A DNA stretch of 64,000 nucleotides, taken from NCBI GenBank assembly GCA_902596545.1, contig CACJUH010000004.1, forward strand, positions 25,170 to 89,169, given 5' to 3'. Below, in pieces: positions 7,280 to 64,000 of the stretch. The position numbers were made by a program, and so were the translations under genes. Below the pieces are notes generated by a model, which was not told the origin of the DNA, made no database searches, and saw only the letters and a list, made by a program, of their open reading frames with translations. Each line of letters opens with the position of its first letter. Within the stretch, counting starts at the first letter, position 1. The stretch comes from an uncultured Candidatus Actinomarina sp. (lineage in GTDB: Bacteria > Actinomycetota > Acidimicrobiia > Actinomarinales > Actinomarinaceae).

Positions 7280-7945
7280 TTACATGTTCATTATTGAACT
7301 AAAATAATCAGGCATATCAATTTCGAATTCATAATCTTCATTATTTACAGTAAAGCCCAAGTAATACGATTGTAAGCAGATTGCATTCTCCGGTACATTC
7401 TTGTCTCTTTTAGCGCCATAAAGTTGATCATTTACAATTGGGGTTTTTAAATACTCTAAATGTGCTCTAATTTGATGATTACGACCAGTAACTAGGTCTA
7501 ATTCTAAAAGAGCTTTCTCTTCAGTTCTGTTTACTATTTCAAATTTTGTTATAGCTTCTCTCCCGGTTTTATTAACTTCTCTTTTTCTTCTATTTTTTTT
7601 TGATTTTGCAAGCGGAAGATTAATTTCACCACTTTTTGTATGTGGATAACCTTCTACTATTGCTCTGTACTTTTTATTAATTAATCTGTTTTTAAATTGA
7701 GATTGAAAGTATGCAAAAATATTCTCATCCAAAACACAGACCATCAATCCAGAAGTTACTCTATCTAACCTATGAACAATTCCCTCTCTTTGATTATCAT
7801 CTTTGATTGGTAAGTTAAATTCATTAACTAAAAAGTCTCTAATTGTAATTTCTTTAGAATTGCTAGTTGGATGTGACAACATTCCGTATGGTTTGTTTAA
7901 AACCAAAAATTGGTCACTCTTAAAAACTATCTCAATATTATTTAT
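7280..7945 (-). CDS. RluA/RluD family pseudouridine synthase (no S4 domain)
   Basis: LNKPYG, HRLDRVTSG (catalytic Asp), TGRNHQIR. Start uncertain: proposed ATA 7945 after GGAG, or TTG 7975/7981 inside lspA. Confidence 0.92.
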   Translation of the reverse strand: MNNIEIVFKSDQFLVLNKPYGMLSHPTSNSKEITIRDFLVNEFNLPIKDDNQREGIVHRLDRVTSGLMVCVLDENIFAYFQSQFKNRLINKKYRAIVEGYPHTKSGEINLPLAKSKKNRRKREVNKTGREAITKFEIVNRTEEKALLELDLVTGRNHQIRAHLEYLKTPIVNDQLYGAKRDKNVPENAICLQSYYLGFTVNNEDYEFEIDMPDYFSSIMNM

Positions 7946-59546: not shown

Positions 59547-59634
59547 AAATCTAAAGACTACATTAAATATTAATTTAGCGGTACTTTATTAATGTTAAAT
59601 TAATGTAAATCTACGAAAAACTTAAAATAATAAT

Positions 59635-60780
59635 ATGCTTTATGCACTTTTAACTTCAATGATATTAAATTTTTCAATCTCACCAGATATGAGTCATGAA
59701 AACGAAAATCATTACACTAAAAATAAAATTGATAATTACGACATAATTACTATTTCTCAATCTGGAAGTCTTTTCTATAGTGTTACAAATCAAATTTTAG
59801 AAAGCGTAGATAATTTAAATACAAATGTTACTTTTATTGGACGAGCAAATGTTGGACTTGAGTCAACAACATTTGCAAATAATGAAATTAATTTAACTAC
59901 ATTAGATAATTTTTTATACAACTTATCGATTAAAACAATTGAATCGTCAGTAGTAGATTACTTTTATGATGAAGAAAGTAGTCAAGCTATTAGAGACAAT
60001 AAAATAGTTATTTCTGAGCTAACTGCAAACAGGTACGAATTAAATGTTGGCGATTATGTAAATCTTGTTGGACTTAATAGTGAAATTATTCCAATTGAAG
60101 TAGGTAAAGTCATTAAGGATTCCAAAATAGGCTGGTTTGAAGGTGTTGTAAATAAAGAGTTAGGTTTTAAATTAGGGATTTATAGAAATATCCAAGCGAT
60201 TATTTGGGATAGTCATATAAATGAAAATTTTTTGATTGAGCTTCATAAAAATATTAACTACAGAAAAGTTAAATTAACTTTTAGAGAAAACAGAGTTAAT
60301 AAAAATTGGGTTCTTCCAACAGCACTAGTAAAAGAAATGTTTGGTGATTTTCAAATCAAAGAAAGAGATGGCGTTTGGATTACTACTCAACCTTCATGGA
60401 GACAGGAAAATATTCAGCAAAAGAGAATGCCCATCATTGGTTTAACAGTTTGCCATAGACTTATGTGGGAACCTCTAGAAGGTGCTTTAAATCAAATTCT
60501 TGCAGAAGGCTTAGAAGATACTTTATCGATAGAAGAATTTAGAACCTCTGGAGGTTGTTATGCTCCAAGGAGAATCAACAGGTTTGATGCAGGAGGTAGT
60601 ATTTCAAGGCATGCTTGGGGAATAGCAATTGATATAAATACAAAATCTGGTTATCCGCCTAGAGTAGTTGAAATATTTAATGACTGGGGATTTGCCTGGG
60701 GAGGTACATGGACATCTCCCGATGAGATGCATTTTGAACTAAGAGATTTATCAGCCAGTGTTTCTAAGACCAGCGGCTAA
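59635..60780 (+). CDS. M15 family Zn peptidase with an N-terminal MacB-periplasmic-like domain
   Basis: SRHAWGIAIDIN (SxHxxxxAxD), WGGTW, DEMHFE; N-terminal VISELTA...LNVGD.V resembles MacB/FtsX loops. Confidence 0.8.
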   Translation: MLYALLTSMILNFSISPDMSHENENHYTKNKIDNYDIITISQSGSLFYSVTNQILESVDNLNTNVTFIGRANVGLESTTFANNEINLTTLDNFLYNLSIKTIESSVVDYFYDEESSQAIRDNKIVISELTANRYELNVGDYVNLVGLNSEIIPIEVGKVIKDSKIGWFEGVVNKELGFKLGIYRNIQAIIWDSHINENFLIELHKNINYRKVKLTFRENRVNKNWVLPTALVKEMFGDFQIKERDGVWITTQPSWRQENIQQKRMPIIGLTVCHRLMWEPLEGALNQILAEGLEDTLSIEEFRTSGGCYAPRRINRFDAGGSISRHAWGIAIDINTKSGYPPRVVEIFNDWGFAWGGTWTSPDEMHFELRDLSASVSKTSG

Positions 60781-63195
60781 ACCATTAATAGATAATAACA
60801 AAGCATTATTTTCAAACTGACTTAACTCTTTTTTTCTCATTTTTTTCATAAGAGAAACTTGAATCAAAGACAGAGGATCAAGATAGGCATTTCTTATATT
60901 TAGAGTATTTTTTAGAACTTTATTGTCATTTAAAAGTTCAGAATTTTGTTTTATTTGTTTAATCATTTTTATAACTAATTTTGACTCAATGAATATATCT
61001 TCATAAATATCTTGATATTCCTCCCCTACTAGTTCATCAACGTATAATTTAGAAATTTTTAAATCAGATTTAAATACAGTCATCTCAATATTGCTAATTA
61101 GGTTTTGAAAAAAGTTAGATGTTTCATAAATACGTCTAACTTTCTGTATTCCATATTTATTAATAAGACTTTCAAATGCTGTTCCAGCACCATACCAGCC
61201 TGTTAGTGTACTGCGTGTTTGGGCCCAGCCAAATACCCACGGAATAGCTCTGTAGTTATCTAATGAAGTAATTTTATTAGATCTTTTTACAGGTCTGGAG
61301 CCGATATTTAATGTTGATAGTAAGTTTACAGGTGTAACATTCTCAAAATAGTTTATGAGATTATTCTTATCTATAAGACTTCTGTATTTTGAATATGAAT
61401 TATGTGATAACTCTTCAAATATATTTTCATATTTCAATTTTGATTCAAGCGTGCTTGAAGAAGTATTAATAAATGCTGCAGAACCTAATTTAAGATTTTC
61501 AAAAGCTAAATAGTGAGTAGAGTATTTATCTGATATAACTTCTCCTTGTTCTGTATATCTAATTTGCGAAGAAATAGTTCCTTTTGGTTGGGACATTATT
61601 GAATCATATGTTGGACCACCACCCCTACTTATTGTGCCACCCCTACCATGAAAAAAATTAATATTAATATTATTTTTCTTAGCTATATTAAATAGCGAAA
61701 TCTGGGCTTTATAAACATTCCATTGTGATGCGATTATCCCACCATCTTTGTTTGAGTCTGAGTAGCCAAGCATAACTTCTTGGTTATTCCTTTTTAAAGT
61801 CTTTATAAATTTCTTGTATTTTTTATTTTTTAGCATTTCATTAATTATCAAATGTGATGATTGTAATTCTTCTATTTCTTCAATTAGAGGTGTTAGTGAT
61901 GGAATATTTTTATCTGGAATCAATGAACTGCATAAATTAAATAAATTTAACAAATCTTGGTGAGATTTAGTCATGGATAAGATAATTGAATTGAATACCT
62001 TCTGGCCATAAATATTCTGTAGTTCAGGTATTTCTTTAATTAAATTAATGAAGTCTTTATATATTTTTCCTTTTTTTGAATTAATAACTGATGAATTTTG
62101 ACGAATATCTAAAGCAACACCATGAAATTCAAATTGTTTTACATAATCAACAAAATCATCTAATTTAGATATTCGAAAATTCTTTCCAAAGACCTCATTA
62201 ACACTATTTTGGAAAATTTCCATATCTTCTAAAAATTCATTAAAAGAGTTATAGCCTTTATTATTTTGCTGAAAGTTTTCTAATCTGTGAAAAACTAAAG
62301 AAAGAAATATTCTAAATGGTTCGTCGAAATTTACTTTAGAGTAATGATCAAATTCTTTTTTCAATAAAATTGAATAATTTTTGATTCTACTCTCTAAAAT
62401 ATCAGGGCAATAAACAAAATTTGTTGAAACACTGAAATCATCTGATAATTCGATGATTTTTTCTTTATAAATACTGATTATTTGATTTGAGTATATCTTT
62501 AATGCCTCTTTTGTAATTTTTGTTGTTACAAATGGGTTACCATCTTTATCTGCTCCAACCCAGGAGCCGAAACTAATGTTGAAATTAGAGCTACCCTTAA
62601 TAATGTCTGGATCTGAAATAAGATCGTTATAAACGTTTCTGTATAAAATGTCTAAATAGAAAATTAATGACTTAACTTCATCTAATGGATTGGGCTTTGA
62701 AGACCTTGTATCCCTTGTGTACCAAAGTTGTGCAATCAATCCGTTTATCTCTTCCATGTTGTCCGAATCATTTTTTTCAATAATTTCACCAATTTTATAT
62801 ATTTTTTTTAATGTTGACTGTCTTGAGCTTTCAGTAGGGTGTGCTGTAAAAACAGGAGTAAAAGTTAGATGTTTTTTATCAGAGGGTTTAATTTTAATTT
62901 TTATATTTTCAAGAAAATGTTCACGAAAAACCTGCTCAGCAATATTTGATAAATAGAAAAATATTGTAAATGATTTAGTTATTACATATATTTCTTCTGG
63001 CTTGAGATGTTTAAGAAGATTGAAAATATCGTTCAGATATTTCTCATTTTGACTTGCTCTATATTTTTTTGATTTTTGACGAATCTCTTCAACTATTTTG
63101 TAATACTTAACACCTGCTTGTTGCTTAATAACATGTCCTAATTCATTGCCAAGAAGTTTTATAGTATTAGGAAGTGTGTCAAATTGAACAGGTAT
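60751..63195 (-). CDS. ppc: Phosphoenolpyruvate carboxylase (814 codons from proposed AUA start)
   Basis: Frame open from 63216 to 60751; LSNIAEQ, FTAHPTE, SWVGADKDGNP, MLGYSDSNKDGG, FHGRGGTISRGG, RAIPWVFGWAQ, AAGLRNTG. Confidence 0.93.
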   Translation of the reverse strand: MPVQFDTLPNTIKLLGNELGHVIKQQAGVKYYKIVEEIRQKSKKYRASQNEKYLNDIFNLLKHLKPEEIYVITKSFTIFFYLSNIAEQVFREHFLENIKIKIKPSDKKHLTFTPVFTAHPTESSRQSTLKKIYKIGEIIEKNDSDNMEEINGLIAQLWYTRDTRSSKPNPLDEVKSLIFYLDILYRNVYNDLISDPDIIKGSSNFNISFGSWVGADKDGNPFVTTKITKEALKIYSNQIISIYKEKIIELSDDFSVSTNFVYCPDILESRIKNYSILLKKEFDHYSKVNFDEPFRIFLSLVFHRLENFQQNNKGYNSFNEFLEDMEIFQNSVNEVFGKNFRISKLDDFVDYVKQFEFHGVALDIRQNSSVINSKKGKIYKDFINLIKEIPELQNIYGQKVFNSIILSMTKSHQDLLNLFNLCSSLIPDKNIPSLTPLIEEIEELQSSHLIINEMLKNKKYKKFIKTLKRNNQEVMLGYSDSNKDGGIIASQWNVYKAQISLFNIAKKNNININFFHGRGGTISRGGGPTYDSIMSQPKGTISSQIRYTEQGEVISDKYSTHYLAFENLKLGSAAFINTSSSTLESKLKYENIFEELSHNSYSKYRSLIDKNNLINYFENVTPVNLLSTLNIGSRPVKRSNKITSLDNYRAIPWVFGWAQTRSTLTGWYGAGTAFESLINKYGIQKVRRIYETSNFFQNLISNIEMTVFKSDLKISKLYVDELVGEEYQDIYEDIFIESKLVIKMIKQIKQNSELLNDNKVLKNTLNIRNAYLDPLSLIQVSLMKKMRKKELSQFENNALLLSINGLAAGLRNTG

Positions 63196-63196
63196 A

Positions 63197-64000
63197 TTAG
63201 ATCCTTTCAGTGCTTTTTATAAAGTCACTTCCTGTAGTGTCGAAAATAATAGTTTTAAGATTATTAAATTCTAATTGTGAAAATTTTGAGTGTGGTGTAA
63301 GAACTAGAAGCATATCATAGTCTTCGAACGAATTTGTATCTACCTCTCTATCAATTATATGGCCTGAAACTTTAAATTCTTCAACATAGGGGTCATAGTA
63401 AGATATATCGACTTCTTTATCCAAAAGCAATTCAGCAATATCTATAGCCGGAGATTCTCTCATGTCGCTAATATCTTTCTTATATGCAACTCCCATAAGC
63501 AATATTTTTGAGCTATTTAATATTATTTTATTCTTATTCAAAATTTCATTAACTTGATTAACTACATACAAAGGCATAGAGTTGTTGATTTCTTGTGCCA
63601 ATTCAACAAAACGAACTGGTTTACCTATTTGACGAGTTTTAAAAGACAAATATTCAGGATCAACTGGTATACAGTGACCACCAACTCCTGGTCCTGGTTT
63701 AAATGATTCAAAACCAAACGGTTTTGTTTTTGCAGCGTTTACTACTTCCCAAATATCAATATCTAACATTTTACACAACATAGCTAGTTCATTTATTAGT
63801 GCAATATTGACATGTCTGTAAGTATTTTCGAGCAACTTAACCATTTCAGCTTCCTTTGTGCCCTTTACAAGAACTGTTTCGTCAATTATTGATTCATAAA
63901 AAGACTGTATTTTTTCAGTAGAAACATTATTAATACCGCTAATTACTTTTGGTGTGTTCTTAAATTTCCATACTTCATTTCCAGGATCAATTCTTTCTGG
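63197..64000 (-). CDS. Nucleotide-sugar dehydrogenase (WbpA/WecC/UDP-Glc-GDP-Man DH family), C-terminal part
   Basis: Manual extension to the window edge: PERIDPGN...TPKVISG...EAEMVKLLENTYRHVNIAL; PGPGVGGHCIPVDP; YKKDISDMRESP. Confidence 0.92.
   Translation of the reverse strand, partial: PERIDPGNEVWKFKNTPKVISGINNVSTEKIQSFYESIIDETVLVKGTKEAEMVKLLENTYRHVNIALINELAMLCKMLDIDIWEVVNAAKTKPFGFESFKPGPGVGGHCIPVDPEYLSFKTRQIGKPVRFVELAQEINNSMPLYVVNQVNEILNKNKIILNSSKILLMGVAYKKDISDMRESPAIDIAELLLDKEVDISYYDPYVEEFKVSGHIIDREVDTNSFEDYDMLLVLTPHSKFSQLEFNNLKTIIFDTTGSDFIKSTERI

Follow-up and report, generated by a model that had tools for sequence, protein, structure and literature searches.

A probable AUA start codon for phosphoenolpyruvate carboxylase, conserved among Candidatus Actinomarina and its relatives

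Introduction

In Escherichia coli, infC and pcnB start at AUU, a weak codon that selection has kept in place to limit synthesis, and gene finders tend to miss starts of this type. Here we describe a candidate start of the same kind for ppc, the phosphoenolpyruvate carboxylase (PEPC) gene of an uncultured Candidatus Actinomarina sp., found in a 64,000-nucleotide stretch of DNA (GenBank assembly GCA_902596545.1, contig CACJUH010000004.1, positions 25,170 to 89,169 of the forward strand; hereafter the window). PEPC is an anaplerotic CO2-fixing enzyme and Candidatus Actinomarina a very abundant, streamlined marine bacterium. The ppc reading frame of the window has no canonical start codon (ATG, GTG or TTG) ahead of the conserved N-terminal coding region, and its translation very probably begins at an ATA located one nucleotide behind the stop codon of the upstream gene.

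Several described systems share parts of this arrangement. In Staphylococcus aureus, infC, ccpN and citZ start at AUA and cvfC1 at AUU, each behind an extended Shine-Dalgarno (SD) element, with roughly 10% of the output of AUG (PMC13009471). In E. coli reporters, the codons AUA, AUU, AUC and CUG yield 1-2% of AUG output (bioRxiv 10.1101/063800). For coupling by termination and reinitiation, the genes must overlap or lie very close together (Huber et al., 2023, PMC10666635). In our literature search, neither a non-canonical ppc start nor any work on the start codons of Actinomarina came up.

Results

The ppc frame encodes a conserved PEPC whose N-terminal part precedes every canonical start codon. 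On the minus strand, the frame is open from 63216 to a stop codon at 60753-60751, and its first ATG, GTG or TTG is an ATG located 146 codons past the ATA (Table 1). The startless part encodes the segments LLGNELGHVI, LSNIAEQ and FTAHPTE. Among window open reading frames (ORFs) of at least 120 codons, only PEPC has more than 29 codons ahead of its first canonical start, namely 153, and the startless stretch exceeds chance. The first-pass annotation, made from the window letters, had described this frame as lacking ATG, GTG and TTG from an in-frame TAA down to the first ATG and as encoding the conserved N-terminus and FTAHPTE in that segment; it had also pointed to an SD-like AAAGGA six nucleotides before an ATA that lies one nucleotide after the upstream TAA. 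Each of these elements is present at its position and in the translation, and the AGG of the SD-like element turned out to be conserved.

The whole frame matches Pfam PEPcase (PF00311) with E = 2.4e-207 and 691 bits (cut-off 22.4). The score against the NCBIfam equivalog PRK00009 is 671.9 bits, below the strict cut-off of 815, which therefore marks the protein as a divergent and short (814 aa) member. Characteristic motifs are present, including FTAHPTE, FHGRGGTISRGGGP (the GRGGxxxRGGGP loop) and a C-terminal GLRNTG, with TAHPTE located upstream of the first ATG. The TAHPTE histidine is essential for catalysis in E. coli PEPC. Over the full-length protein, mean column identity among relatives is 79%, and the N-terminal 146 codons belong to the best-conserved parts, with many invariant columns including TAHPTE. 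This conservation points to strong purifying selection, and we regard ppc as intact in this Candidatus Actinomarina, with a predicted product of 814 residues.

In 18 distinct relatives of 59-94% identity, the proposed start is ATA, ATT or ATC (ATH); it is AAT only where an ATG at -6 has replaced it. The comparison also took in one outgroup of 48% identity and 72 more distant PEPC loci. Nearest to the window are Candidatus Actinomarina (OCS155) genomes assembled from single cells and metagenomes, with 86-94% protein identity. The codon aligned to the window ATA, here called position 0, is ATA in 14 of 18 distinct lineages, ATT in three (L008, L016 and L017) and ATC in one (L110). All 17 distinct junctions in the range of 65-94% identity share the spacing TAA-N-ATH. 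Seven lineages (the window, L015, L016, L017, L094, L095 and L098) have no canonical start from the nearest upstream in-frame stop to codon +7 or later, and position 0 is the only near-cognate codon common to all these startless lineages between the in-frame stops and +4. Upstream in-frame stops (TAA, TAG or TGA) are present in L015, L016, L017, L094 and L095 as well as in the window, and arose repeatedly through synonymous or conservative changes in the dehydrogenase gene that lies upstream. The window TAA derives from a synonymous ATT>ATA change in that gene, the resulting TTT-ATA-AAA reading TAA in the PEPC frame.

In a phmmer alignment, query residue 11 pairs with residue 4 of E. coli PEPC (1fiy), and ungapped extension makes E. 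coli Met1 coincide exactly with the ATA. Each of the 72 distant PEPC loci, compared over an aligned N-terminus, has a canonical start in the open frame, in most cases within about 10 codons of this position. Because these loci and the 48% outgroup have canonical starts, the ATH start is a derived feature of the clade. The outgroup (L018, 1440-1520) keeps the dehydrogenase-PEPC pair and has a canonical TTG that overlaps the upstream TGA (TTGA). The 59% relative (L017, 1440-1520) retains the gene pair too, and at its junction TAA-TAA overlaps ATA-ATT.

A strong extended SD-like element precedes the ATA. Pairing was calculated with the usual actinobacterial 16S 3' tail, ACCUCCUUUCU, which was taken from general knowledge and may differ from the host's own. 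On this assumed tail, GAAAGGA has a predicted duplex energy of -9.4 kcal/mol, which ranks second among 57 window ORF starts (median -1.8) and is reached by 0.7% of random positions. In the relatives, GAAAGGA or GAGAGGA located six nucleotides upstream of ATH gives -9.0 to -9.7 kcal/mol on the same tail. The core of the element is the penultimate Arg codon of the dehydrogenase, which reads AGG wherever ATH is kept; in the window, AGG represents 12.9% and AGA 69% of Arg codons. The Glu codon beside it alternates between GAA and GAG, both of which retain pairing (A-U or G-U). Elsewhere in the window, an SD 4-mer core is found near the first canonical start of only 10 of 47 long ORFs. At most operon junctions of the window the genes overlap by 4 nt or 1 nt (ATGA, TAATG), or an ATG precedes the stop by 5-8 nt. 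This combined junction and SD pattern fits a genome relying on coupling and leaderless starts.

Substitution periodicity switches frame at the junction. Across 16 distinct junctions, considered for 60 nt on either side, variation before the dehydrogenase stop falls on the dehydrogenase third position at 19 of 20 sites, which corresponds to the second position of the PEPC frame. After the ATA, the PEPC third position varies at 20 of 20 sites and the second position least (7/20). No coding periodicity is seen in the PEPC frame upstream of the ATA. In the same junctions, PEPC Phe +4 and Leu +7 are invariant and yet show synonymous changes. Together, the substitution pattern and the synonymous changes indicate that translation in the PEPC frame includes +4 but begins no further upstream than the junction.

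Table 1. Features of the ppc start region and of the second junction discussed in the text, in window coordinates.
Feature	Position	Strand	Remarks
PEP carboxylase CDS as proposed	60751..63195	-	814 codons + stop
ATA, proposed PEPC initiation codon	63193..63195	-	
GAAAGGA, extended SD-like element	63202..63208	-	6 nt before ATA (AAAGGA 63207-63202; spacer TCTAAT)
Dehydrogenase TAA stop	63197..63199	-	1 nt (T 63196) before ATA
In-frame TAA upstream of PEPC ATA	63217..63219	-	cuts off every earlier canonical start in the window
First canonical start of PEPC frame (ATG)	62755..62757	-	668-aa product, without TAHPTE
Upstream nucleotide-sugar dehydrogenase gene (WecC-like), 3' part	63197..64000	-	runs off the window; Pfam UDPG_MGDP_dh, UDPG_MGDP_dh_C
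rluA (RluA-family pseudouridine synthase)	7280-7940	-	lspA TAA 7940-7938, T, then ATT 7936-7934

The upstream dehydrogenase gene and ppc are likely transcribed together. Only the 3' part of the dehydrogenase gene lies in the window; a full-length ortholog (L094) matches TIGR03026 with 441 bits, and the best WecC-like matches are below their cut-offs. Both genes lie on the same strand, separated by one nucleotide, and both are spanned by RNA contigs. Contigs from three metatranscriptome runs (X25, X27 and X30) run across the junction, from which we conclude that the pair shares a transcript, although DNA may contaminate such libraries. No minus-strand terminator was found between the two genes, and promoter-like sites between them are at chance level (6 found, 5.8 expected). 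A separate promoter or a leaderless mRNA for PEPC was consequently dismissed, given the chance-level promoter sites and the continuity of RNA contigs through the junction. The local RNA fold around the PEPC start is not significant (z = -1.19), and a hairpin masking the PEPC SD was dropped on this value.

Gene order is conserved in relatives, with an epimerase, the dehydrogenase, PEPC, an M15 peptidase on the opposite strand and MMPL. The 3' ends of ppc and of the convergent M15-peptidase gene (59626-60780, plus strand) overlap by 30 nt (60751-60780). This tail-to-tail overlap is present in all related loci, for example at 4934-4963 in L008.

An upstream canonical codon is very unlikely to be the true start of the clade. 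Under this explanation, lineages would initiate at GTG -11, TTG -16 or ATG -6, and the window copy, having lost its start through the in-frame TAA, would be decaying or crippled. Such a codon upstream of ATH is indeed kept in 11 of 18 lineages and is used in public gene calls, where it gives products of 825, 830 and 820 aa, and one subclade (L107, described below) seems really to use an ATG at -6. The positions are however inconsistent from lineage to lineage (GTG -11, TTG -16, ATG -21 or -6) and are by-products of conserved dehydrogenase residues. In six lineages in-frame stops cut them off, and the seventh startless lineage (L098) has none after a stop at -18. PEPC is nonetheless strongly conserved at the mean column identity given above, the window TAA turns up again in four metagenome runs that are independent and belong to different studies, and the lack of PEPC-frame periodicity upstream of the ATA also argues against translation of this region in that frame.

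The CTG at 63210-63208, five codons upstream of the ATA, had been named as an alternative start in the first-pass annotation. It is near-cognate, in frame after the TAA and kept in the window, L001-5, L012-15 and L094-99. This alternative did not hold up: the codon is CCG in L008-11, L016 and L110, which lack or do not need CTG, and the position is closed in L017, where an in-frame TGA lies about four codons before ATH. The codons from CTG to ATA evolve in the dehydrogenase frame rather than the PEPC frame, and the SD sits downstream of the CTG. We thus consider initiation at this codon highly improbable.

A +1 frameshift or a short hop over UAA-N, carrying ribosomes from the dehydrogenase into the PEPC frame, would yield a fusion protein and dispense with separate initiation. 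The PEPC frame is shifted by +1 relative to the dehydrogenase frame at a stop codon that directly follows an SD-like element, which recalls prfB, and in the window the dehydrogenase's final sense codon, ATC, and the codon landed on, ATA, both specify Ile. A conserved slippery site is however lacking, since the codon before the stop is ATC, ATT, ATA, TTG or TTA depending on the lineage. In L001-4 the last sense codon specifies Leu, which makes re-pairing of the peptidyl-tRNA on ATA impossible, and the frame relation differs in L017 and L018. We know of no precedent for a dehydrogenase-PEPC fusion of 1,230 residues and judge this explanation exceedingly unlikely.

The ATA is not an assembly error and is found well beyond this genome. 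The window was assembled from an uncultured organism and ATA is one base away from ATG, and the first-pass annotation had allowed for a consensus error or a private ATG>ATA mutation, to be judged by the codon in reads and orthologs. Contigs of four independent metagenome runs, from different studies of 2014-2023, agree on both the ATA and the upstream in-frame TAA. The ATA is also covered by RNA contigs of all four metatranscriptome runs aligned there, with none differing, and the same contigs show strain differences close by, at 63192, 63196, 63200, 63206, 63215 and 63218. As DNA and RNA contigs agree at the codon, we exclude an assembly error. No read-derived contig and no relative has ATG at the position: ATA is supported by four DNA runs, three metatranscriptome runs and 14 lineages, with ATT in three others, ATC in one and ATG in none. 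The probability left for error or private mutation is therefore negligible. Editing of AUA to AUG was not seen in the metatranscriptome RNA contigs, in which rare variants are dropped and low-level editing could escape. Reassignment of ATA to Met was rejected, since ATA accounts for 36% of window Ile codons and alternates with ATT and ATC at the PEPC start position. Finally, translation of PEPC only from the ATG in Table 1, the first canonical start and the automatic call, has next to no probability, as it would drop 146 highly conserved codons including TAHPTE that vary at the third position in frame and can be aligned to the N-terminal part of the E. coli enzyme.

One subclade appears to have replaced the ATH start. 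The L107 subclade (about 66% identity) comprises 26 protein clusters that begin MPIDYKN, with an ATG six codons upstream of position 0. In L107, position 0 is AAT, the Arg codon has changed from AGG to AGA and the neighboring GAG to AAT, and the SD energy is -0.4. The sister lineages L008 and L110 also have ATG at -6 but keep the SD, with ATT and ATC, respectively, at position 0, while L099 of the same clade has ATA and the SD and no ATG at -6. The contrast between L107-L109 and L008, L110 and L099 looks like a start-site replacement caught in stages. It would tie SD and ATH into one functional unit, and we treat it as supporting evidence rather than as a statistic.

A second gene of the window, rluA, shows a related junction. 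The lspA stop codon is followed by one nucleotide and an ATT, and RluA-family models align from the first residue after this ATT. The next canonical rluA start (TTG or GTG) falls inside the catalytic domain. Relatives of 60-90% identity (L100-L106 compared) retain the lspA-rluA TAA-N-ATT junction, and L100, L101, L102 and L104 have an in-frame TAA just upstream of the ATT. The rluA ATT has no well-placed SD, a GGAG being 17 nt away, and a window scan for near-cognate starts with a strong SD returned ppc only. The first-pass annotation had suggested that ppc and rluA together may signal relaxed start-codon selection. The part concerning rluA stands, as it is a real second case, but among about 45 same-strand window junctions only ppc and rluA are without a canonical start next to the upstream stop. 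The TAA-N-ATH start is thus recurrent yet not pervasive within the window. We tentatively raise the possibility, which we hold to be less probable than its opposite, that UAA-N-AUW junctions are a recurrent, conserved class of coupled starts in Actinomarinales in which translation restarts one base later, with or without an SD.

Public annotations place the PEPC and RluA N-termini elsewhere. The 120 best PEPC protein clusters have lengths of 796, 805, 807, 820, 825, 830, 832 and 835 aa; none is 814 aa long and none has Met at position 0. If PEPC starts at AUA, all public PEPC calls examined, whose lengths also include 668, carry a wrong N-terminus. Some of them delete the catalytic His motif, so that metabolic reconstructions could score ppc as broken. 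Public rluA calls are 200, 208, 210, 231 or 233 aa long and never 218.

Discussion

Conservation, SD, junction and frame switch support initiation at the AUA. The first-pass annotation had put this start behind an SD and beside the upstream stop, and these observations bear it out. We consider it very probable that PEPC translation starts at the AUA, directed by the SD and probably coupled to the dehydrogenase gene. The codon is almost certainly a real, conserved non-canonical start, of a kind that gene finders miss. Presumably the initiator tRNA reads it as fMet; the window itself contains no tRNA gene. The strong extended SD GAAAGGA, located in the last dehydrogenase codons, would select the weak AUA, and ribosomes finishing the dehydrogenase would be delivered to it one nucleotide after the UAA. 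Given co-transcription and this distance, translational coupling would follow; the relative shares of SD-directed 30S binding and reinitiation are a matter of inference. The predicted N-terminal peptides are (M)PVQFDTLPNTIK, (M)SIQFDTLPNTIK and (M)SVQFDTLPNTIK, with Met kept or removed. Upstream of the ATA, PEPC-frame residues of L001-type strains would correspond to tryptic GCNISIQFDTLPNTIK after Arg, which lies outside the proposed product.

Several considerations weigh against this interpretation. The start is read from sequence and RNA contigs rather than from an N-terminal peptide or ribosome profiling. In the 11 lineages with an upstream GTG, TTG or ATG, a conserved Ile codon would fit an internal Ile as well. 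The SD overlaps the conserved C-terminal E-R of the dehydrogenase, so that its conservation could be partly at the protein level, and the anti-SD used was an assumed, general actinobacterial one. The L107 contrast reflects one evolutionary event only. By analogy with the E. coli reporters, an output of 1-2% of AUG would be low for a central anaplerotic enzyme.

A weak start could be of use to the cell. No lineage down to 59% identity has turned the codon into ATG, which suggests that the weak start is maintained, perhaps keeping PEPC low. Initiation at AUA would hold PEPC synthesis low and tied to translation of the dehydrogenase, and it is plausible that it lowers or regulates PEPC. Its retention among lineages as far apart as 59% protein identity points to a PEPC output that is deliberately kept low and linked to translation of a cell-envelope sugar gene.

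The main scientific interest of the locus lies in its well-resolved evolutionary series and in the recurring UAA-N-AUW junction. The PEPC family offers a clean natural series for start-site replacement, from a TTGA overlap through TAA-N-ATH with SD to a new ATG with SD and ATH lost. The main practical consequence is the systematic mis-annotation of ppc and rluA in Actinomarinales. If UAA-N-AUW junctions do form a class, start-codon discrimination in reinitiation would be relaxed across the lineage, perhaps through an altered IF3, and annotation would be systematically wrong for a few percent of the genes in an actinobacterial group that is among the most abundant in the sea.

Other bacteria already provide examples of this mechanism, in genes of the infC, pcnB, ccpN and citZ kind. 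Like ppc, infC and pcnB of E. coli have a weak non-canonical AUN start. In contrast to ppc, for which no such loop can be argued, E. coli infC is autoregulated through IF3 discrimination, and the ppc codon is mostly AUA. The abutting ATGA and TAATG pairs (PMC10666635) resemble the dehydrogenase-PEPC pair in lying on the same strand, in being co-transcribed and in their conserved tight spacing (1 nt for dehydrogenase-PEPC), and the most distant relative, L018, shows the classic overlap in its TTGA. At dehydrogenase-PEPC, unlike in these pairs, the restart codon is non-canonical and coupling is putative; the PEPC site, unlike that of rluA, also has a strong SD of its own. The AUA and AUU starts of S. 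aureus and Bacillus subtilis (PMC13009471) share with ppc a conserved near-cognate codon, an unusually long and well-spaced SD and their omission from annotation, and they too include genes of central metabolism (citZ and ccpN). The ppc start differs from the S. aureus set in being proposed from sequence comparison and in its setting, a marine actinobacterium of streamlined, low-GC genome in which few genes are SD-led, where it is located inside an operon one nucleotide behind the stop codon of the upstream gene.

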